64,000 nucleotides of DNA from Candidatus Latescibacterota bacterium. Lineage in GTDB: Bacteria; Latescibacterota; UBA2968. The stretch's first letter is position 1. Each line of letters begins with the position of its first letter. Positions 1,114 to 38,126 of the stretch are shown piece after piece. Location of the stretch: contig OZ253501.1 of the NCBI GenBank assembly GCA_965262145.1, forward strand, positions 1,695,366-1,759,365, given 5' to 3'. Under the pieces are notes generated by a model. It was not told the origin of the DNA, made no database searches, and saw only the letters and a list, made by a program, of their open reading frames with translations. The position numbers and the translations under genes were made by a program.

Positions 1114-1227
1114 AGATATGGGCCTGTTTGTATTCTCTTTGACGATTTCCCTATCTTCGCGTATAAGTTTAAGAGACGGGAGAATATTCTTTGAGACTTC
1201 GCATGAGAATTATTGCGGGAATATACC

Positions 1228-4693: not shown

Positions 4694-5977
4694 TTAAACC
4701 TGAAGCTCTGCGGGGTCATTGATGCGCGCGCCTTCGGGGGCAGGGACTGAGCCTGCGAGCAATGGGTCGCGAGTTGTTTCCATCCAGGTTTGGAGGCGAT
4801 GGCGCAGGTCGTCTATCGCGTCCTGATGGTTGGAGTCAGAGGCGAGATTGTTGGTCTCATATGGGTCAAAAATGAGGTCGTAGAGTTGTTCGTGGGGCTG
4901 ATTTTGCCGTCGCCAGCCCTGGGTGAGAAAGTAGGACTTGCTCGGGCTGCCGTCGCAGTTGATGTCGCCGGGGCGCAGTGTGGGATACCAGTGGCGGATG
5001 TATTTCCATTTTTTTGTGCGAATGGCGCGTTGTGGGTCGTAATAGCTGTGGTAGTTGACTTCTGCGAAAATTTCATCGTGGATTTCATCTGTTTCTTCGC
5101 GGACAAGTGGCAGCACGGATTTGCCTTGCAGCCAGTGGGGATGGTCTATGCCGATCACGTCGCACAAGGTGGGGAAGAGGTCAATTTGAGAGACCATGCC
5201 ATCGATGACTTTGCCGCCTGAGAAACCCGGTCCGCGCATGATAAGCAAGACGCCGATGCCGTGATCGGTGAGGTTGCATTTCATCATGGGGAATGCAATG
5301 CCGTGGTCTGTGGTGCTGATGACAAGAGTGTTGTCGGAAAGTCCGGCACGATCTATGGCGTTGAGGATGCGCCCGACTTCTGTATCGAGGATGCGAACGC
5401 AGGTTTTGTAAGCGGCGGTATCGTATCGGGTTTCAGGGGTGTCGGGCAAAGGTGCGGGGGGGATGCAATAGCGCGGGTCGTCTCCAGGCCCTGGTTCGGG
5501 AAAGCTGCGATGGGTGACGGTATATCCGACGTCGAGAAAGAAGGGCTTGTCGTGAGATCTGTTGAGAAATTCAATGGCCGCATCTGTGGTCGTCTGTTGA
5601 TTTTTCTCTGTGTCGAATATTTCGTCATAACCGATTTCCGAGGGATCGGCTGCGGGGGGGCGACCGACGTGCTGAAAACCTGAGAGGGCGGTTGTGTAAC
5701 CCGCTTTTTTGAGCGTATGAACGAGGTGATGGCTGTAATCCTTGAGGCGAAAACCGCGGTGTGCCAACCCCAGCATGCCGCAACTATGGGGCCATTGTCC
5801 GGTCAGGAGTGCGGCTCGGCTCGGCGAACAGGTCGGGTTGGCGCAAAATGCCTGGCGAAAGAGAACGCCCTGCTCGGCAAGGCGCTGAAAATTCGGGGTT
5901 GGCATGGCATGCCCAAAGGGCTGAATGTAGCGACCCGTGTCGTGAGAGTGGATGTAGAGGATGTTTGGATGGGCCAT
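4694..5977 (-). CDS. Formylglycine-dependent sulfatase (arylsulfatase family)
   Basis: 427 aa. Sulfatase signature 'CSPSRAALLTGQWPHSCGM' (C-x-P-x-R). RBS AGGAGAA. Confidence 0.85.
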   Translation of the reverse strand: MAHPNILYIHSHDTGRYIQPFGHAMPTPNFQRLAEQGVLFRQAFCANPTCSPSRAALLTGQWPHSCGMLGLAHRGFRLKDYSHHLVHTLKKAGYTTALSGFQHVGRPPAADPSEIGYDEIFDTEKNQQTTTDAAIEFLNRSHDKPFFLDVGYTVTHRSFPEPGPGDDPRYCIPPAPLPDTPETRYDTAAYKTCVRILDTEVGRILNAIDRAGLSDNTLVISTTDHGIAFPMMKCNLTDHGIGVLLIMRGPGFSGGKVIDGMVSQIDLFPTLCDVIGIDHPHWLQGKSVLPLVREETDEIHDEIFAEVNYHSYYDPQRAIRTKKWKYIRHWYPTLRPGDINCDGSPSKSYFLTQGWRRQNQPHEQLYDLIFDPYETNNLASDSNHQDAIDDLRHRLQTWMETTRDPLLAGSVPAPEGARINDPAELQV

Positions 5978-5996
5978 TGAATTCTCCTGTGATTAT

Positions 5997-7403
5997 TTAT
6001 AGATACGCTCGAAGGTGTTTGAGGGCGCGGCCATTGTCTATTGCTTCTCGTGTCTGTTGAATTGAATCGTGGGGATCGGCGGTGAAACCGAGCAGATAAT
6101 CTGTGAGGGCGGCATTGAGTACGATGCGGTCGTAAACAGGACCTTTTTCCCCAGAGAGGGCTGCAAGACCGAGTTTGGCAAAGGTCCGCGCATTGACGGC
6201 TTTGGGGCGTGGATTTTGTGCGTAGTGAAAGCCGTAAGTGGCGGGATTGATGTCGCAAGCATAAGTTTGACCGGCGCGAAAGCCCTGTGAAAAATTGATG
6301 GCGTTGCGCGTTTTATCGGTGGGTTTTCCCAGGCGAAGGGAAAAGTGGCTGCTGCCTTCTTCGCCCTTGATTGCGACGGCAGATGTAAATCCGGTCTCGC
6401 GTGCGATTTTCAGGAGGGGGATTTCGTATCCCGAATGGTAATAACCGATGACAATGTGATTGCTGCCAGCGCAGGAGAAGAGTTGCTGCGCTTTTTCTGT
6501 GGCAGACCACGGGGGGCGTTTGCCAATGTGGGCGCGAAGGTCGCGGGATGCGTAGGCCGCCGGGGCATATTCGCGCTGGCTGATGTAGGCAAAGCCAATC
6601 TCGGGATTTTCGAGTCGTTCTGCTGCTTCTGAAAGCGACAAATTGGTGCGGGCATTGAGGGCGTTGAGGATCTGTTCGTCAGTCACACCCCATTTGGGCG
6701 GCATGGCATCTACACCGTGAAGCACGGTGGAGCGGCCGAGGGCCGCGCGCAGTGCCGCGACAAAAAGGGTGGGTTTGAAGTAGCGGGTTGAGCCATTGTA
6801 GGGTTGGCCAAAGTGGGTGAGGTTATTCACCTGTACTGCGTGTGCGCGTTCGGGTGCAAAGGTCGAGTGGAGGTATCCGCGCACCTCGTCGTAGGATTCG
6901 AGATTCATGCGCTGGCCGATCAGCGCAGCACCTTTGAGGCTGCCGCGAACGCTGTCGGTGAGAATGGCTTCGCACATAAGGCGCGTTTGGTCGTAGGTGA
7001 GATGCCCGCCGTTGAGAATGGTTTTTAGCGCGGAAATGACGGTTTGCTCATTGGGTGATTTTGTGGGACAGTGATCTTTAAGGCCGAATATATATTGCAG
7101 GTCGGGTGGCAAGTGGGTGTGTAGAGGAGGGGTATATTGTTCAAAGGCATTGATTTCCGCCTGGCTCCAGGCTGTTTTGGGCGGGTAATTGCGCCGCAGA
7201 TGCATTGCTGCAAAAAAGGCTCCCATCTGGACATCGGAGACCGGATGACGCGCTTTGTTTTGCAGCGTATTGAGGATGGCATCCAGGACGGGTTGTGGCT
7301 GTGGATCGCTGGATTTTTTGCCCAGAGGACGAGATTGCGTGGGGCCTGTACACACACGCGCCTGGGCTTCGAGGACGAGGGGGTTGGGGTCGGATAGTGG
7401 CAT
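5997..7403 (-). CDS. Divergent TrpD-like (glycosyl transferase family 3 / anthranilate phosphoribosyltransferase fold) protein
   Basis: 468 aa. The N-terminal helical region (…PVLDAILNTLQNKARHPVSDVQMGAFFAAMHLR…) and 'GSTRYFKPTLFVAALRAALG' parallel the TrpD 'GTGGDGANTFNISTAAAFVAAAAG' region. The GTGGD loop is not conserved. Family placement is tentative. Confidence 0.4.
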   Translation of the reverse strand: MPLSDPNPLVLEAQARVCTGPTQSRPLGKKSSDPQPQPVLDAILNTLQNKARHPVSDVQMGAFFAAMHLRRNYPPKTAWSQAEINAFEQYTPPLHTHLPPDLQYIFGLKDHCPTKSPNEQTVISALKTILNGGHLTYDQTRLMCEAILTDSVRGSLKGAALIGQRMNLESYDEVRGYLHSTFAPERAHAVQVNNLTHFGQPYNGSTRYFKPTLFVAALRAALGRSTVLHGVDAMPPKWGVTDEQILNALNARTNLSLSEAAERLENPEIGFAYISQREYAPAAYASRDLRAHIGKRPPWSATEKAQQLFSCAGSNHIVIGYYHSGYEIPLLKIARETGFTSAVAIKGEEGSSHFSLRLGKPTDKTRNAINFSQGFRAGQTYACDINPATYGFHYAQNPRPKAVNARTFAKLGLAALSGEKGPVYDRIVLNAALTDYLLGFTADPHDSIQQTREAIDNGRALKHLRAYL

Positions 7404-7519
7404 AAGGTGAAATTATCGCGGAGATGCGGTGTTGTCAAGCGATTGAAATGAGGGAACCACAGTTGAGAGATGAAGTATTAGTAAATATTGACCTCTACAC
7501 GCAAATTACAACTTTTAGT

Positions 7520-7555
7520 AAAGTCAAGTTTTGTTCCAAAAAAAGATTTGACTTT
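7520..7555. promoter_or_regulatory. Perfect 8-bp inverted repeat AAAGTCAA-N20-TTGACTTT in the divergent promoter region between the TrpD-like gene (-) and the STAS gene (+)
   Basis: Read directly. The right arm contains a TTGACT -35-like hexamer. Confidence 0.3.
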
Positions 7556-7752
7556 CGCACAGACAAGTAATATTTTAGCTGAGTTTCTCAATTCCCTGCA
7601 AGAATATATTCTCGCTACAGGACGCAATAGCCCTTGACCGAATTGAGCGAATGGCTTGATCGGGTTTCGATTGATGCAAAAGTCGAATTTCATGCACGCG
7701 ATGTGCGGCAAGAGTTTTCGTAGATCATTTTCACACATCAGGATACAGGTCA

Positions 7753-8091
7753 ATGGAGATTAAAACGCAACGAGAAAATGGAATTTTAATCGCGAACGTG
7801 AATGGCCGGGTTGATAGTGCCAATGCCCGCGAGTTCGAAAATGTATTAAGCTCCGCAATCAGTGACGACGATACCTGTGTGATTGTAGATTTTGGAGGGC
7901 TTTCTTACATTAGCAGCTCGGGTCTGCGGGTCATTTTGCTGGTTGCCAAGTCACTCCGGAATCGCAACGCGGAATTCGCGCTTTGCTCGCTTTCTGGCCC
8001 CATCGGAGAGGTCTTTAAAATCAGCGGATTTGACAAGATCATTTCGATCTATGATTCACAGGCAGAGGCCTGCGCCGCACTGGGCGGATAA
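7753..8091 (+). CDS. STAS-domain anti-sigma-factor antagonist (SpoIIAA/RsbV-like)
   Basis: 112 aa with the conserved phospho-serine region 'LSYISSSGLRVILLV'. Confidence 0.8.
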   Translation: MEIKTQRENGILIANVNGRVDSANAREFENVLSSAISDDDTCVIVDFGGLSYISSSGLRVILLVAKSLRNRNAEFALCSLSGPIGEVFKISGFDKIISIYDSQAEACAALGG

Positions 8092-8580
8092 CCTGCCTTT
8101 CGCTTTGTCGCGTGTGCTCTCAAGCCATAGATGGAGGACTTGGCGTGTTTTAACCTATTTCATAGACCAAGACTCGCCCTGTTTTAATCTGTGTGCTTTC
8201 CACAATCGGGTTGCAGGCGAAGCCATATTATCGAACTCACACGCCGATCCGATTTTCCTGTGTATCTGTTCCATAGATCACTATTTCAGGGTATCTCTCA
8301 TGCCCTGTATATCCGCTTTCAAACCTCCCGAATAACAGCCACCCCTCTATAATTCAGTAACTGGTGTCGTGCAGTTTGTCATTACACAATGACCGATTTA
8401 GCAATCGTTCATATTCTTTAATACCTCTCCTCGGATTCTTCTCTCTTACAACGCAGCGAGTAATGGGGATAAGTCCATAAAGCGAGGACGTTTGCTATCG
8501 CAATGATTGTACACCGATCAAAGAATGCTTAACGTCGGTATAAGTAAGACACCATTAATATATCAATATAAGAGGCGTAT

Positions 8581-23356: not shown

Positions 23357-24481
23357 TTACTCCTCTACCCACGAGCGCGAGTCGGGCACGTCTAACCACG
23401 CCCCGTCTTGCACAATTGATTGCTGACTGATTAATCCCGGCAAGGTCATGTCCATTGCCTCGTGAATGCCAATTGGACAGTCGATTTCGCCGTTAATGCT
23501 TTGGATAAAATCCATTATTTCAAAAAAGTCGCCTCCGCCGTGCCCTGTTTTTAATGCCGCTTCAGAGGGGTTGCGCCACATGTCGGGCAAATAATCTTCT
23601 TCTAAATTTTCCAAAACCATCCATTCATTTTTTTTGTCGCAGATATCTGCAAGCCATACGCGATTGACGCCACCGCGCGCGCGCGCCGATTCATAACACC
23701 CTTTTGTCCCTTGTAGTTGGAAATTGCCGGTTGCATGGGGCCGCTCCGATAGCATATCTACCCGAATTTTTACCAGTCCACCGCACGCCATTTGGCACAA
23801 CATGACGCACGAATCCTGATTTTCATACTGATCTCCCCGCGGGTCTGTGTAATGGTGCCCGCTGCCTGCACAACACACGCGCACCACGCGGTCGCCTGGC
23901 ATCCATTGCAAAAGAGGTCCCAGGCTGTGCGTGCAATAGGTTATACCATCAATGCCCGTTTGCCACTTGCGCCGCCATGTTGTGATTTCATTCAGGGCTT
24001 TCAATTCGTGTAAATACTCTCCTTCTCCATAATATACATCGCCAAACAAACCCCGGCGCACGAGTTCTTTCACCAGTACGTTGGCGCGGGTATAGGTGTA
24101 ATTTTCAGCCATCATATAGATTGCTTTTGACGAAGTAGCGGCCTGCACCAACTCGCGGCATTCCGCTACGGAGACCCCGGCGGTGACTTCGCTCAGAACG
24201 TGAATATTGCGACGCAGTGCCTCAATTGCCTGCGGAGCGTGAAAATGCATGGGCGTGCCAATGACGACCGCATCGATTTCAGAACGCGCCAGCATGGTTT
24301 CATAATCCGCGTATTTTTCAGGCGCTCCCAATCGTTCAGCAGCAGCGTCGAGTTCCTCTTCGCGCACATCGCACACTGCGTGAATGCGGGCCGTTTCCTG
24401 CGCTTCAAAAGCCACCCGAAAACTGCCCCCTCGCCCAGCAGCCCCCACAATGCCCACGTTTAATTTTTCAGTAATGCCCAT
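23357..24481 (-). CDS. Gfo/Idh/MocA-family NAD(P)-dependent oxidoreductase
   Basis: Rossmann 'VGIVGAAGRGG'. ATG 24481 is preceded by GGGAG. The longer listed ORF start 24673 runs into the upstream gene. Confidence 0.8.
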   Translation of the reverse strand: MGITEKLNVGIVGAAGRGGSFRVAFEAQETARIHAVCDVREEELDAAAERLGAPEKYADYETMLARSEIDAVVIGTPMHFHAPQAIEALRRNIHVLSEVTAGVSVAECRELVQAATSSKAIYMMAENYTYTRANVLVKELVRRGLFGDVYYGEGEYLHELKALNEITTWRRKWQTGIDGITYCTHSLGPLLQWMPGDRVVRVCCAGSGHHYTDPRGDQYENQDSCVMLCQMACGGLVKIRVDMLSERPHATGNFQLQGTKGCYESARARGGVNRVWLADICDKKNEWMVLENLEEDYLPDMWRNPSEAALKTGHGGGDFFEIMDFIQSINGEIDCPIGIHEAMDMTLPGLISQQSIVQDGAWLDVPDSRSWVEE

Positions 24482-24485
24482 GGTT

Positions 24486-27272
24486 TTACTCCCATGTGTT
24501 GTTTGTAAAATCCAGTTGATTGGCGTTTTCGGATACGGCGCGTTTGATTTGATCTGGAACGCCATTGGGGAACTCTGCCTGTATTTCCAGCCGGACATCC
24601 ACCTGTGCTTGTGGGTCGCTTTGAAGAAGGCTGATGATTTCTTCGGCAATTTGTACAAGACGCATCTTTGCAACGGATGGATTTACATTCGCTGTGCCGA
24701 TGAATGTATGTATAGAAGTCTGTTCCTCTGGGGGGGGAGTCTCTTCGGGTGGTGGGGCAGGGGCGGGAGGACTGCCAGGGGGAGGGTCTGGGTCTATATC
24801 GGGATCAGGCGTTTGATTTTCAGCTTCGTATTGCTTTGCGGCTTCTGGTTCGATCAACAAGAGTGTGTCGTCGAGTTGTACATTTGCATCACCTAACTTG
24901 AAGCCATCGAATTTGCCATCGCTATGTCCATAAGCTGTACCAAAGAAATCTCGGCTGTCAGCCCCTGTCGCGATAACCTGAGCAAATACATCGCGATTTT
25001 TGAGGCGCGGAAGGTAGAGGTACTGCATCGTATCTTCCCAAAATACCATAGCCTCAATGGCGGGTTTATCGGGTTTCCAATAAAGCTCTTGTAGTCTGGT
25101 GCGAAGGTGAATAGGTGACCATGTGATAATTACCAGTTCGTTTTCCACGCATACGCGCTCAATTTCATTTCCCAATGGGGTGCCATGCGTGTTCAATGCA
25201 AATGCTTCGACAATGAGTTTGCGGTCTGTGGGCGTGTTTTGCACCGCACACAAAAGCCATTTATAACATTCTCGCGCAATTTGTGGGAGAACATCTTCGG
25301 CGGTTTGAAGCTGTTTTTGTGCCTGTTGGACCTGAAGCGTGTCCAGCACTAGGCGCATCTCAGATACATCTTCGACGATTGATTTCCAGGCCAAAGCCAC
25401 CCGAATACAATCGCGCAACCGCCCCAACAAACTATAATCTGGCGCGAGGAATACCAACCGATTGCCCCGGTACCTGGGTTTTGCACCGTGATTGCGCACA
25501 TAGTCCAGAATCGCTTCGGTTGAGAGCCGCGTTTCTTCACGAGAATAAAAATTTTCAGGCAAGAGATAGATCAGGCGCAATGCGCTGTCATCGGGAACAT
25601 CGGCATGGGGAGTAAATATGTGCTTGCCCTCGAAAAACGAGATGCCGGTTGACATTTTTTTCAGTACTTCGGCCAGCTTGCCGCGCACTTCGTTTTTGTC
25701 ATCAAAGCGTCTCTTGCGGTCTTCCATCTCGCGCCGAAGATTTGCTCGCGTATCAAACCAGAACCGCGTGACTTCTCGCGCTTTGTCGCCAGAACTGTTG
25801 AGATAATGCAAGCGATCCGATAGGCGATTGAGGGCGTCTGAATAAACCGAAGATGGTTGACCGGGTTGCAAACACCCCAATAGTACACGCGATCTATCGA
25901 GTCCCCGTGTGTTGGATGTTTGTACAGCAGAAGAAGGCGCACTCCCCAGAAAAAGCGTTCTTGCCACGCGGCGGGCAGCCTGAACAGCACCAAACCGAGG
26001 CTCTTTGTTTTCGAGTTCTGTTGTTTCTGCGCGTTCACCGTCTATGTCTCTTTCTATGACGGGATCCCAGCCCGCTGGCAAATAATAGGTCAATTCGTTG
26101 CGGGAGCCGCCATCGTACAGGGGCAAACTGCTGGGCAAAATCATCGTGTCTTTATTGTCGTCTTCCCATAACCGATAAATTACTTTGGCCATCAGTTTGA
26201 GTACGCCGCGCGTACGCTGGAACCCATCTATGGTAGCCCAATCTTCGTATAGCCGATCAAAGACTTCGGGGTGGATGGGATAGGCTTGTATCAAGCGGTC
26301 GAAATAGCGGGCTTCTTGTGTTTCTCCCGGTAGCTTTGCACCTTCGGCAACATACGCATCGGCATAAGCCCTGCAAACTGTTTCGCGGGTTTGTTCATCG
26401 GTGATGGTTTGGAATAAACGCCGCCTTACGATTTCAAATGCCTCTTCGGTTGCAACGGGCTTCCACAGGGCCTGTACGCGCCCAAATGTTTTTTCCAATG
26501 CACGCAAAGCCATGATCCCCCGGTTGCCACCTGCTTCCACTGTAGATTCGGGTAAGGATCCCAAAATCACGGCATTGGGTACTAATTTACACGCTTCTGT
26601 GAGGGCTTGAATAAATGACAAATTGCTGTCATAACTTCCACCGCTCAAATTTTGTCCTTCCTGAAATTGCCGAATATAAGCTACCAATTCGTCAATGAGG
26701 ATCACACAGGGTGCGTAAGTTTCCAGGAGTGTTTTTAGCACATCTTTGCCCGGTGATGTGCCATTTGCATCGGCTGCTTTGACAAGCTCAAATCCCTCTT
26801 TTTCCCCCAATTGGTAGGCGAGTTCACCCCACAATGTGCGAATGCCGTGTTTCCATGGCTGACCGGGTGCATGAGCCTGACCGTCTAAAATGGCAACCCG
26901 CGCTTTGGGTACGTCCATCATCCCGGCCTTGTCGAGCAGTGTTGGAATGCCCGCCAAATCACTCAATTCACAATTTCTCGTTGTGAGATGATAGACTGCC
27001 AATAGCGTGTGCGTTTTGCCGCCCCCAAAAGCCGTTTGCAATTGAATGACTGGCTCTCCACCTGTACCATTGAGCCGCTGCGCGACTTGCATCAGCAGCG
27101 TTTCCATGCCTTCTGTGATGTAGGTGCGCTGAAAAAAAGCAATGGGGTCTTGATATTCCCGCGTGGCTTCACCCTTGCGAACGGCTGTTATATCGGCGGC
27201 AAATTCCGATTGCTGAAACGTGCCTTCGAGCACATCGGGATGAGGAATAACGACTTCTCTCCAGGGTTTCAT
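24486..27272 (-). CDS. DUF499-family (BrxC-like) P-loop ATPase, component of a DUF499/DUF1156/SNF2 three-gene defence system
   Basis: Start '[14 protein letters not shown]…[11 protein letters not shown]' is typical of DUF499. Walker A '[10 protein letters not shown]'. Length ~928 aa. Confidence 0.75.
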
Positions 27273-27326
27273 AATACCTGCTCCGGTTGAATTTACTGTT
27301 CGGCCTTTGGGCAAGAGGGGCGTGGT

Positions 27327-30227
27327 TTATTCAAAAAGCCGTGATTGCACGGGTTCAGTCACAACTGCACTTTCAATGCCTGTCCAGCTTGTGACCAGTT
27401 CGTTATATGCTCGCGCATCCTCTGCCCATCCCTTGCGTTCACAAAGGGTGTAGAGACGATAAGCCAATTGCCGCGTGGCCCCGCGTTGGGACTTCACTGC
27501 TCCAAGTTGAGCACCGGCCACTGTTTCGCCCGATTGTTTTAATGTGCGAATCAAATGATGCAGGGTTTCCCAGATTGGGTTGCGTGAATCTGTGTGTGGA
27601 TTCCAATTGGTGGGATATTCAGACCACCTGTGCAAACGCACCTGCCCCCCGCCAGACGCAATGACCCCGGCATTTTCCACCCCATCGACACTTGTTCCCT
27701 TTGCGCGCGAAAGGGTATCTGCATCGCCATAGGGTCCCTCGCGCCAGCCGTATTGTTCAAACCAGTGCAAGCAGAATTGCGTATCGGCATCAAAATCGTC
27801 TTCAGCCAGGTACCGGTTGATAAGCTGAAGCGCTGTTCGCACGGGCATTGGTGTCCCATCGGCTTCAAGCACAGCCTGGTATTTGGAAAAAACAGCCATT
27901 CCCGGTCCAATGATGGCCTGAGACAAATCCACTGGTGCAACCGGAGACCGATCTTCACCGGCCCCTCGGGTCATCTCATCCAGTGCTTCTGGCAATACCG
28001 CATCTAACTCTCGCAAAAACTCTCGTCGAGAAATAACAGGTGCATCAGCAGAACGCTTTTTGCAAACGAGAATGATGCTGGAGGCGAGGGCATTGGTACC
28101 TGCTGCAATCTGGCGAGACTTCATTTCAGTACGCATCGGCCAGGTGCCCGAAAGCTGAAATCCTGCTTGATCAACAGCTTCTAAAAAGGTCTCCCAGCCG
28201 GTGGAAGTTGTGCCCCCGTTGGCTTTTTTTTCCGCCTGCTTGAAGGCATAGTAGATGGTAACGGGAAAACCGGGGTGTGCTTGCTCTGCCAGCCGTTGCA
28301 TCGCCTTTGTCATCCCGCCCATGAAGAATGCCTCTGCCTCATCATTACTGTTGTGGCGGTAGCGCATGGCAACCAATTCATCGGCCTTGGGCGTGGCGAG
28401 TGTGGCAAATAGGTCGGGAAATACCGAGCGTAGCGAACGGCGCAGCCAGATGTAGAAGAAGTCCGAAAGATCAGCGTAGCAGATGTTGTCGTAGTAAGGC
28501 GGATCGGTGGATATGATCATTCCATTTGACAAGTCCTGTGTCTGAGCGTCTGCCTGAACGGCAAAACCAGAAGTATTGATCTCAAGAGGAATACCCTTGA
28601 TCACTCCGGCAACTGAGATTTTGTAGTCACCTGCTGCACCTGCAAAGGGATTTACATCTGGGAAATCCCAAGTCATTGGAATGGCTTGGCGGGCGAATGC
28701 TGTCACGGTTTGTTCTCTTCCTGGTGTCCAACGTGCGATCGTACAAAGCGTGTTGCTCATGCGATCTACAGCAAAAGCCAGGTACACCCCCATCGCTTCT
28801 GCATACGCCGTTGCACCATTGCCGCCATCGCGCAGAGGGCTGTCGTCGTCAGGTAAACCGGCAGCGGTAGCATCGCGCTTGACTTGCTCCATTGCATCTT
28901 GTATCAGGTCGCTAAAAGTTGTGAGAGCGACGAGTTGGCGGGAGGTGAAAAGATCGGCCCATGTGAAGAAGCCGTAACCTCGGCCGCTAACCAAGTTGGG
29001 GGTATCGCGATTCATTGGTTCGTCCGGCTTCCACTTCGGTTTCGCCTCGTGTGCGATGGCTTCCATTTCCGGTGTAGGTGATAGGTACACCCGCCCGCGG
29101 TCGCCCGAGGCCACAATTGCCATGAGCCGTGCGCCCATGCGCCCGCCCATGCTCTCGGCCTTGATGTGGTTGCTCGACATCGGTGCGCCGGATAGCAAGC
29201 AACGGAAGGTTGACCCGCGTCCGAGTTTTGTTCCGGCTTTGGCTGCATCTGGATCCTTTGGCTTGCCTACTTTTAAGATGAAGTGATAGGCGTCTCCTTT
29301 GATGACTGGCTCTATGTAGGCTTCTTTTTTGTTCTTGGTGGAGAGCATAAAGGTCGAAATCAGGGGTACATCTACATGGGCAAAGGCCGGGTTTGGGCTT
29401 TTTACCGTGCGCGCCCACAGCCATGCGATGACTGTGAGTTTGCGTCCCGCGTACTGTTTCAGATCTGACCTTTTGGCGACCATCTCTTCTGTGATGGCGA
29501 TTTTTGGGTACAGATGGCCGATGCGTTTTTCGGCCTGGTCACGCATCCATTTGCCATAGTAGCGCACATCCTCGGCAAGGCCCGTTGCGCCTTTCCACCG
29601 CGCTTTTTGGGCGAGATTTTTCTGCATATCTGGGTTTACTGGCGGTCTGTTAGAAAATTTTGGTGGGATCTCGATCATTGCTTTGTTGATGAGCACAGCA
29701 ACGGGATTGAGGTCTGAGGCGTATGCTTTCAGGCCAAGGCGTTGCGCTTCCAGCGGGATTGCACCTCCGCCTGCAAACGGATCATGCAGGGCAGGGAGTT
29801 TGTCCGGGTTGAACAATTCGGCAGCCTGTGGGTGGTCTTTGTTGAGTTCACACACTTCTCGCCATGACCGACGGATCTCAACCCTTGCCTTTTCCAATAC
29901 TTCCTCGTTTGTGGTGTTTTCCCACCGTACGAGTTCTTCAATGATTTTGAATAGCCGTTTCCGCTCAATAGCGGCGTCCTTTTTATTCACGCCATATTTG
30001 AATCCGTCTCCTTGCTGGTATCCCGGGTCATTCACAAGCTGTGCAAAGATAACCGCGCGTGCCGCAGCAAGTGGTCGCCGTGCCCACCACAGATGCAGGG
30101 TGCTGGGGTGTCCATGTCGAATAGATTTTTCGCGTGCCGCTGCCGCGTTGATCGCGTCCAGAGGTAGCGCAACTTCAATGAGTTTCCTGGGTATTTTGAC
30201 ATTCTGATACATACCTGCTCGTTTCAT
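27327..30227 (-). CDS. DUF1156-family N6-adenine DNA methyltransferase
   Basis: DUF1156 N-terminal signature '[12 protein letters not shown]…[27 protein letters not shown]'. Catalytic motif IV 'DPPYYD'. ~966 aa. Start chosen at M15; M20 is also possible. Confidence 0.8.
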
Positions 30228-30272
30228 TTTGTGTGGGTGGTGGTTCCTGTTCGATTGGCAGTCTCTCAATGG

Positions 30273-30701
30273 TCATTCTTCAGGTAAGTTGGGACGCTCG
30301 CGCCAGCGCGAGGCATCTGCGAGTTCTTGTGCATGCCGCTTTTGTTCTTCCCTGTCTTCAGCTGTAAGCTCTGGTAGGCGAATATCCGCATGATACGGAT
30401 TATTATCGAGCGGAGAGGCAATGGCCTGCCGTCCATTGCAGTCAGCTTCCTCAGCGGTAAGGAAGGCCCATCCGTAGAAAGTGGCACTAGGTGTACGTGC
30501 TGCGCCTACATTATCAGCAATTGCAACTGCCTCTTTCGCTGGTGCGATACTGAGTCTGTCAACCGAAATGTCGGTTTGGCCCTCTTTTTCTAAAAAAGCA
30601 TTATGTGAGACTCTGGATCGCCGCGCACGCTTCGCCTCCCTACTTGAAAACATACTACGCCCGAGTTCCTCCGCCGGTGCGATGTTATTCGGAATATTCA
30701 T
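30273..30701 (-). CDS. Hypothetical protein (142 aa), cargo gene inside the defence island
   Basis: Open frame with good coding periodicity, 46 nt downstream of the lower-GC pair. I recognise no family. Confidence 0.4.
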   Translation of the reverse strand: MNIPNNIAPAEELGRSMFSSREAKRARRSRVSHNAFLEKEGQTDISVDRLSIAPAKEAVAIADNVGAARTPSATFYGWAFLTAEEADCNGRQAIASPLDNNPYHADIRLPELTAEDREEQKRHAQELADASRWRERPNLPEE

Positions 30702-30715
30702 GAAATTTTATCATC

Positions 30716-31423
30716 CTACTGATGCAACTCGATTAGAGCTTCACGCACAAAGCCGTCGGGAAGTGTACTGGTAGTGTCATAACGGGCGCGTCTATGATTG
30801 CCGTTCATGTTGACCAGACACAGCGCACCGCCTGCGGAATCGCATAGTAACAAAACTGACCGTCCGTGCCCGCCCGGAGCATCAATGGCAATCTCGCCAT
30901 CCGGTGTGGGATATACCTCGAAACGACGGGGTGAAATCAAGTACATCTCTCTCAACAAGCGCTCCGCATTTTCCAAAGCCATTTCGGATGGCACAGGGAA
31001 CCCTTCTTCAAGTGCTTCGTCCTTTGCCTCCTGAAGATCGTACAGTGCATCGTACAGTTCAGGATTGAGTGTCTTCTCAATTGCTTCGTAAAAATCACGG
31101 AATGCGTTGGCCCGTTCAAAGTTGTATGCCTTCGCAATTCGACTAATTAGAAGATTATAGATATCGGAACTCGATGTATCGGGTTCGATACTATAACTAG
31201 GCGAAAGCAATAATGTTTCTAAGTCTTTTGACTCTTTTGCAGGCTCATTTAAAATAGCCTCTAATATAGACTGACTATTAATTAGTCCCTCCTCAGTCTT
31301 GCTAATCCAATCTGTCGAATAGCCAAATATATTCATATCGTCCGGGGTAGTTCCGGTATCCGGACTATCTAATAGCCCGATGTTTTTGTACAGCATTAAT
31401 GTGGGAGAACTGAAAGTTGTCAT
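30716..31423 (-). CDS. Hypothetical protein (235 aa), lower-GC cargo gene
   Basis: 4-bp ATGA overlap with the upstream ORF. No recognisable motifs. Visibly AT-richer than the flanks. Confidence 0.4.
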   Translation of the reverse strand: MTTFSSPTLMLYKNIGLLDSPDTGTTPDDMNIFGYSTDWISKTEEGLINSQSILEAILNEPAKESKDLETLLLSPSYSIEPDTSSSDIYNLLISRIAKAYNFERANAFRDFYEAIEKTLNPELYDALYDLQEAKDEALEEGFPVPSEMALENAERLLREMYLISPRRFEVYPTPDGEIAIDAPGGHGRSVLLLCDSAGGALCLVNMNGNHRRARYDTTSTLPDGFVREALIELHQ

Positions 31424-32127
31424 GATTTAGACTCCTGGAAATTGAACTTTTTTACCAGCGCATCAAAATCAGATAAATCATTTTTCCACAATGTAAGAAT
31501 GTCTGAAATTATGTTGATACGGTCTTGCTGATCCATTGTTGATGGTATATCTCGATGAATATTTGCTTGAAACAGCATAATAGGGATTTCTGGATCATCA
31601 TTTTTTTTCTTCGTTGTTTCAGCGATATCCAAGACAATCTTTCTTGTGTCATATTGATATATCGTTTTCAAATGAACCTCCGGTGTAACGTCCTTGAATG
31701 ACATCTCCGCACTTTTGATTAGGATATTAGAAACTTTTTCTGGAACTTCAGCAGATAAATACCTGTAACCTTTGGGATTGATACCAATAGCACTATAAGG
31801 GACATGAGGCACTTTCTCCATATAACGTTTCGCTATTTCCGGACACAGAATATCTTCTGGCGCCAAAGAGTCTCCCGTTTGCAGAAAAGTTACGCGATCA
31901 GGTAACGCCTGCACGATGATACCTCTCTCAAATTTCACTTGCGAAAAGAGCGGACTTGAAATTGGATTACCTTGCAGCGACAGGTCGGCATTCACGATTT
32001 CATTGTGACGCAAAAAGTCCGGGTTAATGATTGAGGGATTGTTTGACTGAGCAACTAAAACAACAGCAACCTCACCCAGTTTAACGCTCTTATCACTTTT
32101 TTCGTCCAGCAATTTCTCCTGTGTCAT
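31420..32127 (-). CDS. Hypothetical protein (235 aa), lower-GC cargo gene, first gene of a two-gene operon
   Basis: Open frame, translationally coupled to 30716..31423. Its own upstream intergenic region (32128-32279) carries an imperfect palindrome. Confidence 0.4.
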   Translation of the reverse strand: MTQEKLLDEKSDKSVKLGEVAVVLVAQSNNPSIINPDFLRHNEIVNADLSLQGNPISSPLFSQVKFERGIIVQALPDRVTFLQTGDSLAPEDILCPEIAKRYMEKVPHVPYSAIGINPKGYRYLSAEVPEKVSNILIKSAEMSFKDVTPEVHLKTIYQYDTRKIVLDIAETTKKKNDDPEIPIMLFQANIHRDIPSTMDQQDRINIISDILTLWKNDLSDFDALVKKFNFQESKS

Positions 32128-32224
32128 GATTGACCTCTCTTTTTAGTAGAATCGGCTGACCGCCGAACTACATCTCACTGCGAAATGGATCAACAGATAG
32201 TCATAATTTTTTGACTCCCGCCCA

Positions 32225-32253
32225 CCTATTGTAGAATTTGTCCACAATGTAGG
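32225..32253. promoter_or_regulatory. Imperfect palindrome CCTATTGTAG-aatttgtc-CACAATGTAGG in the promoter region of the lower-GC operon
   Basis: Read directly. TTGT…ACAA arms. Possible operator. Confidence 0.3.
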
Positions 32254-32279
32254 TGTATTTCAGTCATCTCCCGCGTCTC

Positions 32280-32762
32280 TCAGCTCAGCACTTGTGCCAG
32301 AGAGGTCCCACATTTAATTCTCTGAACGATTACTGATCTCCCGCGAAACTGGACTTTGTTGGACTTGTTTCTCAGTCGTCTTTGCTCAATTTTCGAAATC
32401 CTACCCGATGCAACAACCGGGGTAAAATTCGTATTTGCGTTATGTGGAATAATCTGATTGGCGACATCAGCACCAGCCTGAAGTTGCTTTGCGACCGCAC
32501 TGGCACTGACCCCACCTGATTTCAGTTCTATGGGTACGGTCCACGGACTTCCATCTGTATCGTCTAAATATCCGAGAAACAGGTAGTCGCATCGCGTTTC
32601 ATGCTGGCTCGGAGGTGAACTGGGAGAATCCATGTGGATCAGGACGAATTGACGCGAAACCCCCTTGAGAAAAATCGAACACTTTCCCGCTCTACACTGC
32701 TTTCTCAGGCATCGAGCATCCAATTTCCCTCGTACCGATTCCATCATCGTCATCTGGTTCAA
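32280..32762 (-). CDS. Small putative PD-(D/E)xK-like nuclease / Cys-cluster protein, partner of the AAA_21 ATPase
   Basis: 160 aa. 'LIHMD…CDYLFLGY…PIELKSG' fits a D…D…ExK arrangement. N-terminal CxxxxCxxxxC. ATGA overlap with the ATPase stop. Confidence 0.35.
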   Translation of the reverse strand: MNQMTMMESVRGKLDARCLRKQCRAGKCSIFLKGVSRQFVLIHMDSPSSPPSQHETRCDYLFLGYLDDTDGSPWTVPIELKSGGVSASAVAKQLQAGADVANQIIPHNANTNFTPVVASGRISKIEQRRLRNKSNKVQFRGRSVIVQRIKCGTSLAQVLS

Positions 32763-34291
32763 CTTTCCTCAATTCGGTTGGAGATTGTTGCCCAATCGTT
32801 GTGGGTACCAATCGCAATGTCGTCATAATCAGATCGGAATCCACCATAATCCACATCAAGGGGCATCTCCTTCACTATCGAACCCTTGGGGCGTTTTTTT
32901 GGCTCGAATAGCCAGGCGCCTACCTGGTCGGGACTGAGCGCGTAATCCGCCCCACCGACCCCTTTTCTCCGAGATTCAGGTAGATCGGATAGACGTACCA
33001 AGTTAGCGAGTTCTTCCAGTACCCATTCGCTATGTGTGGTAATGATGACCCGTATGCCGGAACGCACCGCCGCAGCGAGGTGCCGAATGAACGCGACCTG
33101 CATTCCGGGGTGTAAGTGGGATTCGGGTTCTTCGATGATCAGGACTTCCCCAGGGGAGACGACATGGCGCAGGTACAATACGACGGGCGCGAGTTCCGAT
33201 ACCATTGACGAAGTATTCATCAATTGCATGTCTTCTTTCCATCCTGTTGGTTGGTAGGAAAATACCGGGTAGCCAGTAGATGAATTTTCGATGCGAATTG
33301 ATCCACTCAGGATTTCTTTTTCGAGACGTTGGGTGAGATTCTCATTTAGCCTTTTCTTTTTCCTTGCCAAATCGCCCAAGTCAAGGAGTTGTTCGATGAA
33401 GTCGGCGAGAACGCCAGACAACTCAGGTAATGCTCGTTCGGGGCGAAGACCCGCACGCGACGCACCTTGGATCAAAGAACCTACGACGACTTTGTGCGCG
33501 TGCATGACGCCCGCGCGGTCTGCGGGGAGATAATAGGCAGGCCGACTCATTGGATTCGCGAAGTAAGAAACGACGTTACCAAAAAGGTTATCTATCAATG
33601 CAGCCGCCGCCAAAAACCTTCTTTCTCTACTATCTGGCCATTTTGGTTCGAAATTTTTTATTCGGGATGTGATTTGGATATACTCCTCAATGGCGCCTTT
33701 TCCGATCTGCAAAGGTGCTGTGTCGGGAATTGAAGCGATGAAAGCCTTTTTTGTAATATTGAATTTATACAATGAACTGTTGTTGTACCTCGCTTCTGAT
33801 GAGCCTGGCGTTTTTGAAAGTAGAGCGACCTTCGCGCTTTCCTTATTTGCATGGCGAATAAGCTTTCTGGTCTCGTCAATACCAAAACACCGCATTATTT
33901 CAGGGGCGAGATCATCGCCGAGGAGAACATCACTGAGCATAGGACGGATCAGCGATGCAATTACGTCTGGTACAGGAAAATCCTCTGACGAACCCTTTAT
34001 TTTCATTTGCGAAACGATTTGGTCCGCTCCGTCAATCAAACGCGCGATATTTTCCTCGGATATCGCCTGCTCGTATAATAAACCTCTACGAGAAGAAAAA
34101 TAAGGACGTCTTGTTGTCCTGCGGCTATTAAAAAACTTATGCAGCGCGTAGATCAAAATCGCCAGATAAGATTTTCCCGTATTGCTCGGTCCGACAAATA
34201 CGGTGAGTGGGCGCAGTTCGATTTCTGCACTATAAATCGGTCCGAAATCCCTGACCGATAGCATCAGATTTCTGTTTTCTGATGTCGCCAT
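32759..34291 (-). CDS. AAA_15/AAA_21 (OLD/ABC-like) ATPase of abortive-infection-type two-gene modules
   Basis: Walker A 'GPSNTGKSYL'. Walker B / H-loop 'VLIIEEPESHLHP' … 'ITTHS'. ATG 34291 is preceded by AGGAGG. Confidence 0.75.
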   Translation of the reverse strand: MATSENRNLMLSVRDFGPIYSAEIELRPLTVFVGPSNTGKSYLAILIYALHKFFNSRRTTRRPYFSSRRGLLYEQAISEENIARLIDGADQIVSQMKIKGSSEDFPVPDVIASLIRPMLSDVLLGDDLAPEIMRCFGIDETRKLIRHANKESAKVALLSKTPGSSEARYNNSSLYKFNITKKAFIASIPDTAPLQIGKGAIEEYIQITSRIKNFEPKWPDSRERRFLAAAALIDNLFGNVVSYFANPMSRPAYYLPADRAGVMHAHKVVVGSLIQGASRAGLRPERALPELSGVLADFIEQLLDLGDLARKKKRLNENLTQRLEKEILSGSIRIENSSTGYPVFSYQPTGWKEDMQLMNTSSMVSELAPVVLYLRHVVSPGEVLIIEEPESHLHPGMQVAFIRHLAAAVRSGIRVIITTHSEWVLEELANLVRLSDLPESRRKGVGGADYALSPDQVGAWLFEPKKRPKGSIVKEMPLDVDYGGFRSDYDDIAIGTHNDWATISNRIEES

Positions 34292-34320
34292 TGTTGCCTC
34301 CTCTGAATATCCTGGATGGC

Positions 34321-35103
34321 TTATTGGGCAGGTGTACCTTTTTGGAGCAACGTTTTTAGATCGAAGTTGACAGATGAAACGCCCCAACCTGGTTCGGTGT
34401 CAAAGGGGTTGCGAATATAATAGGGGCCATCTACGGTGTCGTCTTCATCCACGAGTACAATCGCGAGTAAGAATTTGTTGGCTTGATTGAGTGCATAAAG
34501 GATTTCATTACGAGATATAGTCACGGTGGTTGCACCTTTCACACGGCCTTTCACTTCTATGTGTCGAACTTCGTTGGTTACTTCATCATCAACGGTGGTA
34601 TAAGATGTGATATCCCATCCGCATTTCTGTGCCGAAACATCTATGACGCGACATCCGCGTTGTTTTTCCACTTGAATTACAGTATCCATTGCAATGCGTT
34701 CAATACGCGCGCGTGCCTGTGCATCAACAGCAAAAGTGGATTTCCCTTCTTCTGGTAGTTCGCCGCGCAATTTGCGAAGTAAGCCCACGGGAACGACGAG
34801 CGCACCTCCAAGGGCAACGGGTGTCGCAGATGTGACGTGCCGCATGGCCTGGAGTTCCTTTTTTCGATTTTCCAAACGTCCTTCAAGATCGCTCACCATA
34901 CGTCTTGCTCTTTCGAGAGGGAGGCGCACGTCTTTACCCATTTCTGCGTCTTCTTTGAGTTTGAGCCAGCGGTCCGACAAAAATTCGATTTCTCTGGTCA
35001 AGCGTTCATGAACAGCGGCGAGGGTCTTATCTACCCCGAAAAATTCATAAAATCTGAGAAATTGGCGTAAATACTGGACTTCCCAGTTATTGCATCGAAA
35101 CAA
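34321..35103 (-). CDS. DUF3883-like restriction-endonuclease-fold domain protein (stand-alone), encoded in-frame downstream of the SNF2 helicase
   Basis: C-terminal '[19 protein letters not shown]…[11 protein letters not shown]…' is a PD-(D/E)xK-like core (D…E-V-K) typical of DUF3883. TTG start. Confidence 0.5.
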
Positions 35104-35157
35104 ATATTTTTGGCCTAAATTTCATAACCATTTGTAAAAAATAAAATTATGGAAATT

Positions 35158-37986
35158 TTAAGCAAATTCATGAATTAGTCGGGCTACATGTTCAATCCGT
35201 CGTTGGGCTACTTCTCCATAATGTTCGGGCACCAGTGTTTCGGCGGCTAATGCCAATGCGCGTTGTTCATGATCTGTACAAATCCACGGTTCAGCGAGCA
35301 CATCTTTGAGCAAGTCGCGGTCACCATCTGAAATGGGTTCTAAATCGAGATGTGGTGCCCATCCTGCAAAAGCAGCAGAACCGTCGGGCGCAACACGTAC
35401 AAATTGTAAGCGTTTAGACAATGTCCTGTCAACATCTCCTTTGATTTCATGTGTGAGTAGAAAAAGCAAATGGGGTTCTATGCCTTCATCGGTGGGATCG
35501 ACGAGCACTGTACCTTGCCGTAGCAAATTGCCGTGACGCTCCAACAATACATCGCTGGCAGCCAACATCAACGGATGGCCGGGGTGCAACATCGCCGCGA
35601 AAGGCGCATTGGGCTTATCAACGAGACGAACAGCCTCTTTAGTAAAGCAGACTCGTTCGTATTTTTTCAGTACGGGCGCTATATCGCGACGGTTACGACC
35701 CGTTATCATTCGGTCTCGATCCCGAATTGCAACAGGAACATGTGTAATTTCAAAACGGGCAGCTTCCCGTTGATAAATAACGCCTCCTAAGGACTCAAAA
35801 GCTTTTAAGAAAAAGGAACGCACAAAATAGGGCTGAAGTCGTCTGGCCTCGGCTTTTTCCATTTCTTCTTTGACCGCAAAGAGGCGTTCGGGATGCATTG
35901 TTTCTTTTGCAAGTGCGTTGCGGTGGAGAATAGCGAGTATGTGTTCGCGGTCAAAGGCGTGATCGACCTTTTGATTCAAGCTTGCCCGGATTTCGGGCTG
36001 ATCGCCATATCTGATCGCATTAAGCAAAAGGTCTTTCAGGCTAACGCCTTCAAATACTTCGCCCAAAATGTCAAATACCCGACCTTGTAGAGCCGAACTC
36101 TCAACTTCCAGTTTTTGCAAAAGCCGGTGATACACATCGCCTTCACGGGTCTCTCTGGCTACCAGATTCCAAAGATGACATACATCTTGTTGTCCAATGC
36201 GATGTATGCGCCCAAAACGCTGTTCCAGACGGTTGGGATTCCACGGCAAATCGTAATTCACCATCAGATTGGCATTCTGAAGGTTCACGCCTTCTCCGGC
36301 GGCATCTGTTGCAACGAGGATACGCACTTCGGGGTCGGAGCGGAACCGAGCCTGGACGCGCAAACGCTCGTCGTGTTGAATACCACCGTGAATGGTGACG
36401 ACTGAATTGGGATTCCCCAGCACACCTGCAATTTTATTTTGCAGATAGTTGATGGTATCGCGGTGCTCAGAAAAAACGATCAGCTTGCGCAAATTTCCAT
36501 CTGTATCGCGTATAGCCTGGTCCTGCTGCAAAATGCGCGAAAGCTCGTCCCATTTGCGATCTCGCTCGGAATGCACAACTGCTTCGGCCTGATTTTCCAG
36601 TTTTTTTAAAATATCTATTTCTTGCGCCAATTCTGTAACTGTCCGTGCAGCAGTCGCCTGATCTACAAGTGTCTCTTCCAGATTTTCTTGCTCTTCGGCA
36701 TTGAGTTCATCGTCGTCTTCGGGAATGTCCGCAAGAAGCTCAGCAAGATTTTTTGGCTTGTGCATACCCAATTTTTCTTCGCGCAAACGGCTTTCCAATC
36801 GTTCTTTTCTGCGCTTAAGCGACTGGAAAATTGCTTCGGGACTCGAGGCGAGACGGCGTTGTAATATTGTTAATGCAAATCCAACTGAGCCTTTGCGTTT
36901 GCTATCGAGTTGATCTGCCTTGCCCATTTCAGTTTGCACATAGTGTGTCACTGCCTCGTAAAGCGTGGCCTCAATATCCGAGAGTGTATAATTTACCGTA
37001 TATGCTTTGCGTTCGGGAAATAACGGTGTGCCATCAAACTTAAACATTTCCTCTTTGACCATTCGGCGCATCAAATCCGAGTAATCGACTTTGTGAACTC
37101 CATCTCGAAATTTACCATAAAATCGGTCTGAATCCAGCAATGAGAGGAAAAGCTGAAAATCTTCTTCTTTGCCGTTGTGGGGCGTTGCCGTTAGGAATAG
37201 AAGATGCCGTGTGTGCTCACCTACTTTTTCCGCTAAAAGAAAGCGTTTTGTGCGTTCAATTTCGCGTCCATAAAAATGTGCCGAAAGTTTATGCGCTTCA
37301 TCAAAGACTACCAGATCCCAGGGTTCAAGACACAGTTTTTGTTGATAGTCTTCATTGCGTGCCATCTGGTCGAGCCGGACAATGAGATGATCGTGGACTT
37401 CAAATGGGTTGCGGCCAGGAGAAGTGGCTTCGAGTTCTTTTGAAAAAATGCGAAATTCCAGACCGAATTTTTCATACAACTCATCGCGCCACTGTTCAAC
37501 GAGATTCCCGGGTGCTACAATTAGAATACGGCGTGCATCTGCACGCATAAGCAATTCGCGGATGTAGAGGCCCGCCATAATGGTCTTCCCCGCACCGGGA
37601 TCGTCAGCCAGAATATAGCGCAGGGGTTGCCGGGGTAGCAGGGACTCATAAACTGCTGTTATCTGATGTGGAAGTGGCTCCACATTTGACGTGTGGACAG
37701 CCATCATCGGATCAAAGAGAAAAGCCAGATCAATACGTTTGGCTTCGACCGCGAGTTTAAAGGCTTCGCCATCCCCATCAAATGACCATGGACGCTCCTG
37801 TGTGGCAAGCGCAATATTTTCCTCATCCGCTCGATTCAGCAAGCGTTCTTTGAGCGTGCCATCGGGTGTTTTGTAGATAAGCGTTACAGAATCTTCAGTA
37901 ATGGGTATTACCGCGACGACAGAGACAACACTTGACGGTTCAATACCCACAAGGGAGTTACCCACAGATAAGTCTTCGATTCGCAT
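35158..37986 (-). CDS. SNF2-family helicase of the DUF499/DUF1156 defence system
   Basis: Motif I 'DDPGAGKT', motif II 'VVFDEAHKL', motif VI '[11 protein letters not shown]'. Start chosen at MRIEDLSV (ATG 37986). The ORF stays open up to 38094. Confidence 0.8.
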
Positions 37987-38126
37987 TAAAATACCTTTAT
38001 TAACAAATTCTATAGCAATCAGCGCATAGGCGTAGCTACGCCACAACGATAGGAATGACAACAAAAAAACTTTCTGGATCGCGGCTAAAACCATGCCGCG
38101 ATGACGGCTCTACAGCGCATGATTCG

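Follow-up and report, generated by a model that had tools for sequence, protein, structure and literature searches.

A probable three-component toxin-antitoxin-like cassette carried as cargo between hmaA and hmaB in a Latescibacterota genome

In CmdTAC, a SecB-like chaperone senses the capsid protein, an ADP-ribosyltransferase (ART) toxin is released, and the phage infection is aborted (PMC11618068). RnlA is a HEPN toxin that acts against phage and contains two TBP-like domains (PMC8266594). Hma, also named the Type-1 DUF499-centred BREX (bacteriophage exclusion)-related system (PMC12839542), has a gap between hmaA and hmaB(C) that has been published as a hotspot where defence genes insert (PMC11232893). 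The cargo reported for this gap includes Septu PtuAB, an AAA_21 ATPase with an unknown partner, and GmrSD (PMC11232893, PMC12839542). The cassette described here, X1-X2-X3, lies in such a gap at 30273..32279 of a 64,000-nucleotide stretch (the window) from Candidatus Latescibacterota bacterium (assembly GCA_965262145.1, contig OZ253501.1, positions 1,695,366 to 1,759,365). It is probably a co-transcribed, translationally coupled, mobile three-component toxin-antitoxin-like cassette, with X3 as the toxin, the conserved C-terminal domain of X2 (X2C) as the antitoxin, and X1 together with the N-terminal part of X2 as an accessory layer, occupying the hmaA-hmaB hotspot as independent cargo and not as part of Hma.

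The three open reading frames (ORFs) lie on the minus strand exactly where the original prediction had placed them:

X1, 31420..32127, minus strand, 235 aa: first cassette gene, an AT-rich accessory component (a candidate sensor, adaptor or regulator) with a TBP-like duplicated alpha/beta fold
X2 (whole), 30716..31423, minus strand, 235 aa: second cassette gene
X2 N-terminal extension, 31094..31423, minus strand, ~110 aa: delimited by alignment of homologues; hypervariable, Ser/Thr/Pro-rich and AT-rich (GC 0.389)
X2C, 30719..31093, minus strand, ~115-125 aa: conserved C-terminal domain of X2, the putative antitoxin domain
X3, 30273..30701, minus strand, 142 aa: putative toxin with a probable ADP-ribosyltransferase-like fold
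Spacer 5' of X1, 32128..32279, minus strand, 152 nt: contains an imperfect palindrome at ~32223..32255

The ATGA overlap between the X1 stop and the X2 start, from which translational coupling had been proposed, is present, and of 44 related loci that have three genes, 31 show a 4-nt overlap as well.

Evidence for the composition of the cassette came from a scan of species-level genomes with X3 as the anchor; of 166 matching stretches, the best 80 were used for locus counts. X2C lies directly 5' of X3 in 79 of these 80 loci, usually overlapping it or a few nt apart, whereas X1 precedes X2 in only about 43. The invariant core is therefore X2C plus X3, to which X1 and the X2 extension are added as an optional layer. 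The X2C-X3 core has the linkage of a type II toxin-antitoxin pair, in that the two small genes are adjacent, co-oriented, tightly linked and co-occurring. The functional unit is accordingly not the AT-rich X1-X2 pair that had first been singled out; it takes in all three genes, around the X2C-X3 core. The length of X2 follows the optional layer: among the 44 loci in which X1 was detected, 43 have an X2 of at least 209 aa, and where X1 is absent X2 is mostly 115-175 aa long. In four Chloroflexota loci (L021, L028, L071 and L074), a long X2 occurs without X1 and is preceded by a different coupled gene of ~105-115 aa, the members of which share 52-77% identity and have no Pfam match. The long X2 of L054 is preceded by an unrelated 235-aa protein, and that of L078 by a 370-aa protein. 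The first slot of the cassette may thus be interchangeable.

All 80 loci come from metagenome-assembled genomes (MAGs), each from a lineage typical of sponge microbiomes, for example Latescibacterota, Nitrospirales, Dehalococcoidia, Binatia and Entotheonella. X3 is truncated in three loci (L070, L041 and L084), and a fourth (L042) has an additional copy of X2C; such patterns are typical of toxin-antitoxin decay. Separate horizontal acquisition, as originally proposed, is borne out by the occurrence of the cassette in many phyla and genetic contexts, which marks it as mobile, and by the composition of X1, which is richer in AT than its flanks in 44 of 44 three-gene loci (median difference 0.117).

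The three families are well populated and intact in the window, with 131 homologues of X1, 829 of X2 and 484 of X3 in the database; a profile search with X3 returned 815 clusters at 50% identity, in which every checkable name was absent or hypothetical. The earlier statement that the ORFs hold no recognizable domain stands: none of the three has a match in Pfam, NCBIfam or PHROGs, and against the defence-system models of PADLOC v2.0.0, X1 and X3 have no match at all. X2 has a weak match to PDC-M32A (E 1.4e-3), which recurs in eight of 25 X2C members (best E 5.6e-4), and no catalogued PADLOC system is matched significantly by any of the three proteins. Profiles of X1, X2C and X3 gave no links to solved structures. 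An assignment of X1 as a TIGR04255-type protein was rejected when 0 of 72 members matched in NCBIfam. Literature searches found no description of the X1, X2 or X3 families, and RefSeq labels the homologues on cyanobacterial plasmids as hypothetical proteins. Within X2, the C-terminal domain is 70-83% identical even when it occurs as a stand-alone protein of 130 aa.

Additional evidence for the roles of the genes came from operons in which X1 heads other gene pairs. In a scan of metagenomes, the X1 profile picked out 80 loci containing X1 relatives at 25-49% identity, only six of which carry X2C and X3. Most of the others have a different second gene (140-280 aa) and a different third gene (120-260 aa) on the same strand, often with a 4-nt overlap. 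The largest cluster of third genes, with 16 of the 42 loci that have a third gene, encodes HEPN proteins; its profile matches a "HEPN domain-containing protein" in the PDB with E 1.2e-7, and also retron HEPN and UPF0332 entries. Four further loci have a MazF/PemK-like third gene with full-length PDB matches (E 6e-4 to 0.09), and all 11 of the top 11 matches of this cluster are of the MazF/PemK/EndoA type, one being listed as "Uncharacterized protein". Since HEPN and MazF proteins occupy the third slot, this slot is that of a toxin, and the second slot that of an antitoxin. By analogy, X3 would occupy the toxin slot and X2 the antitoxin slot of the window cassette, and X3 is likely its effector. 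Among the remaining third genes, cluster 3 aligns with X3 with an hhalign probability of 29%, the SVD and HAD motifs being aligned, and may be a distant X3 relative. At least two clusters are uncharacterized. Two third-gene families of ~210-260 aa (L097, L100, L107, L114, L126 and L129; L104, L123 and L161) have the motifs "QGDI...CP(V/I)F" and "SQSCD(L/I)" in common and are candidate new toxins.

The toxin-antitoxin-chaperone (TAC) class, including CmdTAC and the HigBA-SecB TAC of M. tuberculosis, is the nearest design analogue of the cassette. In both cases there are three genes, and the accessory protein is shared by unrelated toxin-antitoxin cassettes. In both, moreover, the antitoxin has an extra, unstructured-looking segment whose presence correlates with the accessory gene, as seen from the length of X2 in loci with X1. 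The parallel with CmdTAC would extend to an ADP-ribosyltransferase as toxin. There are, however, several differences. The fold of X1 is TBP-like and not SecB-like; X1 is encoded first, not last; and X2 is extended at its N terminus instead of having a C-terminal ChAD element. Searches of Pfam, NCBIfam, PADLOC and PHROGs found nothing that relates the proteins by sequence to CmdT, CmdA or CmdC. The resemblance is best described as an analogy of design, and not as homology. A second parallel is with RnlAB/LsoAB, where a TBP-like module and a HEPN toxin occur together in an anti-phage toxin-antitoxin system (PMC8266594), HEPN genes being also the most frequent third genes behind X1 relatives.

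The fold of X3 was compared with those of known proteins. The structural matches are headed by Tse2 (score 6.9), followed by KptA/Tpt1 (6.5 and 5.1), AvrPphF ORF2 (5.2), TreX (5.2), Tne2 (5.0), a RES toxin (4.8), OspC3 (4.8) and DarT (4.7), with pertussis-like toxins, Scabin, LT, CARDS and diphtheria toxin lower among them. The conserved residues of X3 are R15, S46-x-D48, Y76/W78 and H104-A-D106. Placed by secondary structure alone, the invariant R15 ends strand 1 and S46-x-D48 lies on strand 2, which fits the first two positions of the ART motif; H104-A-D106 lies on the last core strand. X3 would share its design with the toxins of RES-Xre, ParST and MbcTA and with the type VI secretion system (T6SS) toxins Tse2, Tne2 and TreX, which are minimal ART-fold proteins of ~140-180 aa with a small neutralizer encoded next to them; the Tse2/Tne2/TreX/RES group is among the best structural matches. 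X3 differs from this group in having neither a RES nor any other Pfam domain, in a neutralizer that is not of the Xre/DUF2384 type, in the absence of a secretion context, and in its pattern of conserved residues. It does not belong to the RES family.

The cassette is also distinct from DarTG. X3 has no profile similarity to DarT/DUF4433, X2 of the window lacks a macrodomain, and the order of the cassette is reversed, with the antitoxin first. In L083, X2C is fused to an established antitoxin, a full-length DarG (NF048014, E 9e-134). In this locus (5883..8423 of the Dehalococcoidia MAG contig OZ244564.1), darT, a 483-aa DarG-X2C single ORF and X3 follow each other, and L084 has the same arrangement split into several ORFs. 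The idea that X3 replaces DarT in L083 was rejected, as tblastn found an intact canonical darT directly 5' of the fusion. The locus looks like two toxin-antitoxin modules with their antitoxins joined in one frame. Because DarG-X2C has its own DarT, the fusion supports only the antitoxin nature of X2C. A different fusion occurs in L035 (6354..7985), where about seven TPR repeats precede X2C in a protein of 543 aa, encoded directly 5' of an X3 homologue.

These comparisons suggest a mechanism. The loci themselves show the gene order, the coupling, the co-occurrence, the fold resemblances and the exchange of cassettes behind a common first gene, among them those with HEPN and MazF; toxicity and neutralization are inferred from the equivalence of slots with the MazF and HEPN operons and from the DarG-X2C fusion, and the chemistry of X3, the trigger and an anti-phage effect are likewise proposed. 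With an ART-like fold, X3 would be a toxin that modifies or depletes a target, probably with the help of NAD+; within this reading, our confidence that X3 has ART chemistry is evenly divided. X2C would be the cognate antitoxin, neutralizing X3 by binding it directly. The N-terminal extension of X2 and X1 would form an accessory layer that controls when the antitoxin fails, with X1 possibly stabilizing X2 or sensing the trigger, for example a phage product. Loss of X2 would release X3 and stop growth, possibly aborting a phage infection. In these terms the cassette is a probable new variant of a three-component toxin-antitoxin or abortive-infection system. A broader proposal, which we advance tentatively and regard as somewhat doubtful, is that X1 defines a widespread, hitherto undescribed class of such systems, with a TBP-like protein as the common sensor or adaptor instead of SecB, a hypervariable antitoxin N terminus, and interchangeable toxins (ART-like, HEPN, MazF and at least two unknown families), the window copy being an anti-phage module placed in restriction-type loci.

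If confirmed, the cassette would contribute a new family of toxins, minimal and ART-like, with 815 clusters that are unnamed wherever a name could be checked, and a new, very conserved antitoxin domain in X2C. X1 would be a new shared third component with an organizational role like that of SecB and an unrelated, TBP-like fold. The cassette would provide a testable model for how toxin-antitoxin modules gain phage-sensing layers, would widen the cargo catalogue of Hma/BREX-related and type I restriction-modification (RM) hotspots, and could help explain the heavy toxin-antitoxin load of sponge-symbiont genomes.

PADLOC identifies the operon around the cassette as Hma, with two cargo units in the hmaA-hmaB gap. 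The flanking genes are as follows:

hmaB, 27327..30269, minus strand: DUF1156 methyltransferase, 3' of the cassette (PADLOC HmaB, E = 0; Pfam DUF1156)
hmaC, 24486..27314, minus strand: DUF499 ATPase, 3' of the cassette (PADLOC HmaC, E = 0; Pfam DUF499)
hmaA, in two pieces, 35158..38094 and 34321..35103, minus strand: SNF2 helicase plus NOV_C nuclease (PADLOC HmaA)
AAA_15/AAA_21 ATPase, 32759..34387, minus strand: Pfam AAA_15, E 1.9e-20; PADLOC PD-T4-4_A, 1.3e-36, and PDC-M47A, 1.8e-29
ATPase partner, 32280..32762, minus strand, 160 aa: weak PADLOC match to PDC-M47B

The flanks thus correspond to the methyltransferase/ATPase and nuclease/ATPase pairs recognized at the outset: HmaB and HmaC lie 3' of the cassette, and the AAA_15 ATPase with its 160-aa partner, nuclease-like by eye, lies 5', followed by HmaA. 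The ATPase and its partner are a separate embedded two-gene system. That defence cargo accumulates at this site was also correctly foreseen, given the published hotspot (PMC11232893) and the recurrence of the cassette both there and in type I and type ISP loci. The cassette itself landed in the gap as independent cargo. It shares with the known cargo its position, where insertions of defence genes have already been reported, but it is not a core component of Hma: X1, X2 and X3 have no PADLOC Hma match, and Hma genes are found near only ~8 of the 80 loci. Targeted term searches of PMC11232893 and PMC12839542 did not find X1-X2-X3 among the cargo and auxiliary effectors, and the Nucleic Acids Research paper on the Hma/BREX-related system was found to contain no mention of ADP-ribosylation.

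The relationship between cassette and host operon bears on two alternative explanations. In the first, the cassette would be a guard or backup effector tied to the surrounding Hma, BREX-related or RM system, firing upon phage anti-restriction with X1 as the sensor. At least six loci do have the cassette inserted among the core genes of Hma, and three have it among those of type I RM; auxiliary or backup effectors within BREX-related systems are described in PMC12839542. However, neither Hma nor RM genes lie near the cassette in ~85-90% of loci. Moreover, Hma carries different damage in the window and in L001, the closest relative, a Gemmatimonadetes MAG locus with the same cargo at the same site plus an ApeA_NTD1 gene, and both keep an intact cassette. 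The window hmaA is in two pieces, with positions 1-946 of the PADLOC HmaA model in one ORF and positions 943-1170 in the other; L001 has an intact hmaA, and the AAA_15 pair and X1-X2-X3 are intact in both. This pattern argues for independence of the cassette, and we consider a guard function improbable. The second explanation, in which X1-X3 would counter defence or would serve the surrounding Hma alone, as its regulators or immunity factors, was raised by the original prediction and draws on nothing beyond the position of the cassette inside the Hma operon. The cassette is mostly found without Hma, X1 is common to cassettes with unrelated HEPN and MazF toxins, and the phage collection gave no match, with a single match among 2.9 million viral contigs. 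A role specific to Hma is contradicted by these distributions, nothing points to an anti-defence function, and the explanation as a whole is very improbable.

Evidence for a role in defence comes from the recurrence of the cassette in restriction-type loci. The hmaA-hmaB gap contains it in the window and in five other loci (L001, L007, L047, L070 and L072), from several phyla and with Hma proteins only ~50% identical, and in L040 it lies just 5' of hmaB. It is inside or next to type I RM genes in L004, in L012 and on an 18-kb Picosynechococcus plasmid, where a distant X1-headed trio lies between hsdR and hsdS; in L003 and L016, it adjoins type ISP enzymes. The sole match among the viral contigs, L085 from IMG/VR, has a distant X2-like gene (163 aa) and an X3 homologue (136 aa, 40% identity) at 684..1608, at the edge of a block that was read from translations as portal, prohead protease and HK97-like capsid. 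A defence role for the cassette is plausible, and within the toxin-antitoxin reading we rate a specifically anti-phage role at slightly below even.

Several observations weigh against an ART-like toxin in a phage-responsive cassette. A Foldseek search of X3 against the PDB gave no significant match (best E 0.75), profile searches of PDB, Pfam, NCBIfam and PADLOC found no ART relative of X3, the X3 profile had no match in the PDB even up to E 10, and hhalign of X3 with DarT gave a probability of 0.4%. X3 shows no evident canonical R-S-E or H-Y-E triad, with H104/D106 at the third position and no conserved Glu. The L083 fusion, having a DarT next to it, is uninformative on the chemistry of X3. 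X2C is more conserved than X3 (mean column identity 71% versus 62%), which is unusual for an antitoxin. X3 has no matches in collections of cultured plasmids and phages. Some X1 relatives on cyanobacterial plasmids have no annotated toxin-antitoxin-like pair 3' of them. Finally, most of 29 sampled loci have no PADLOC-recognizable neighbours within two genes, a coarse count over 111 neighbour proteins with no background control, and most copies of the cassette lie outside recognizable defence islands.

The first of these observations raise the possibility that the roles have been wrongly assigned: X3 would not be an ART-like toxin, X2C could be the enzyme or toxin with X3 as its inhibitor, or the two could form a non-toxic complex. 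The higher conservation of X2C, the failure of Foldseek and of all sequence profiles to link X3 with ARTs, and the incomplete triad are what such an assignment would predict, and we give it a small chance. Because Foldseek, the profiles and the DarT alignment were negative and the motif is partial, the structural evidence for an ART-like X3 fold is moderate.

The last of these observations bear on the main rival, according to which this toxin-antitoxin module would be purely selfish, a means of addiction or stabilization with no antiviral role, and the Hma and RM gaps no more than permissive hotspots. This would account for the sampled loci without recognizable defence neighbours and for the many neighbours with housekeeping functions, for example sulfatases, thiamine pyrophosphate (TPP) enzymes and carbamoyl-phosphate synthase. 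It would also account for the several or decayed copies of the cassette in some genomes, and for the concentration of the family in MAG lineages of the sponge-symbiont type, which is consistent with niche-limited horizontal spread. On the other hand, the same position recurs in Hma operons that have diverged to ~50% identity in several phyla, as well as in type I and type ISP loci, and one copy lies beside phage head genes. The hypervariable segments of the antitoxin and its fusions to TPR repeats resemble sensing modules, and among related architectures a defence function has been proven for CmdTAC, DarTG and RnlAB (PMC11618068, PMC8266594). We regard a purely selfish module as unlikely; it would still be a new family, of modest interest.

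The composition of the cassette follows its division into core and optional layer. All three ORFs had been described as a lower-GC block, which is true of X1 and the N-terminal half of X2, the lowest-GC DNA in the 64 kb, but not of X2C and X3, which are at background. GC is 0.393 in X1, 0.389 in the N-terminal half of X2, 0.529 in its C-terminal half and 0.520 in X3. The segment 31064..32127 has a GC of 0.39 against a mean of 0.508 for the 64-kb window (z -3.3 to -3.7). When GC was scanned across the 64 kb in 708-nt segments, one every 50 nt, the eight lowest values (z about -3.3) all came from segments beginning within 30951..31301, which together run from the start of X2C through the variable half of X2 and most of X1. 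In the 44 three-gene loci, X2C and X3 deviate by ~0.045 from the composition of their flanks.

The spacer 5' of X1 had been thought to hold a promoter of its own for X1-X2 and an imperfect palindrome. The palindrome is there, at ~32223..32255, with 13 pairs, a 2-nt bulge and a fold z of -3.4 against shuffles; the promoter is not confirmed, as the 152 nt contain no sigma-70-type consensus site. The spacer is 88% identical to that of the orthologue L001, and the palindrome is kept in the close orthologue L001/L002 save for one uncompensated substitution in the stem. No operator-like palindrome is common to distant loci among the 44, and a conserved operator 5' of X1 was therefore rejected.

Plasmids of cyanobacteria carry further X1-like genes. 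On plasmid NZ_CP016487.1 of Picosynechococcus sp. PCC 8807 (L172, 2995..4745), an X1-like gene is followed by genes for proteins of 197 and 146 aa; all three are annotated as hypothetical, and a HepT/MNT pair adjoins them. The third gene resembles X3 by eye, and its "FIYRAVS" start is reminiscent of the aromatic-Arg strand-1 motif of cholera-toxin-type ARTs. On plasmids of Anabaena cylindrica (L173) and Gloeothece (L174), X1-like genes lie a few hundred bases 5' of giant CARDB-domain proteins and not of toxin-antitoxin-like pairs, although small genes may be missing from the incomplete gene tables of these plasmids.

Other features of the Hma operon concern its cargo and its damage. The 160-aa ATPase partner has a D...ELK pattern (DYLFLG...PIELKSG) that was read by eye as a PD-(D/E)xK-like nuclease motif. 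The ApeA_NTD1 gene of L001 (11996..13483, 495 aa) lies between X3 and hmaB and is missing from the window, which indicates turnover of cargo at the site. An alignment of L001 13530..17399 with window 23357..30269 has HmaB residues 6-882 followed directly by the final 40 aa of HmaC, indicating that ~3 kb of hmaB-hmaC has been deleted in L001. The window hmaA is split into a helicase ORF and a NOV_C nuclease ORF by an AT-rich insertion of ~149 nt at ~35035..35183 (within 35029..35189) that carries in-frame stop codons and is absent from the orthologue in L001, which is ~90% identical on either side of the junction. No second copy of the insertion was found within the 64-kb window. It looks like a miniature inverted-repeat transposable element (MITE), having imperfect terminal inverted repeats of 23 nt and what may be a GTAG target duplication.

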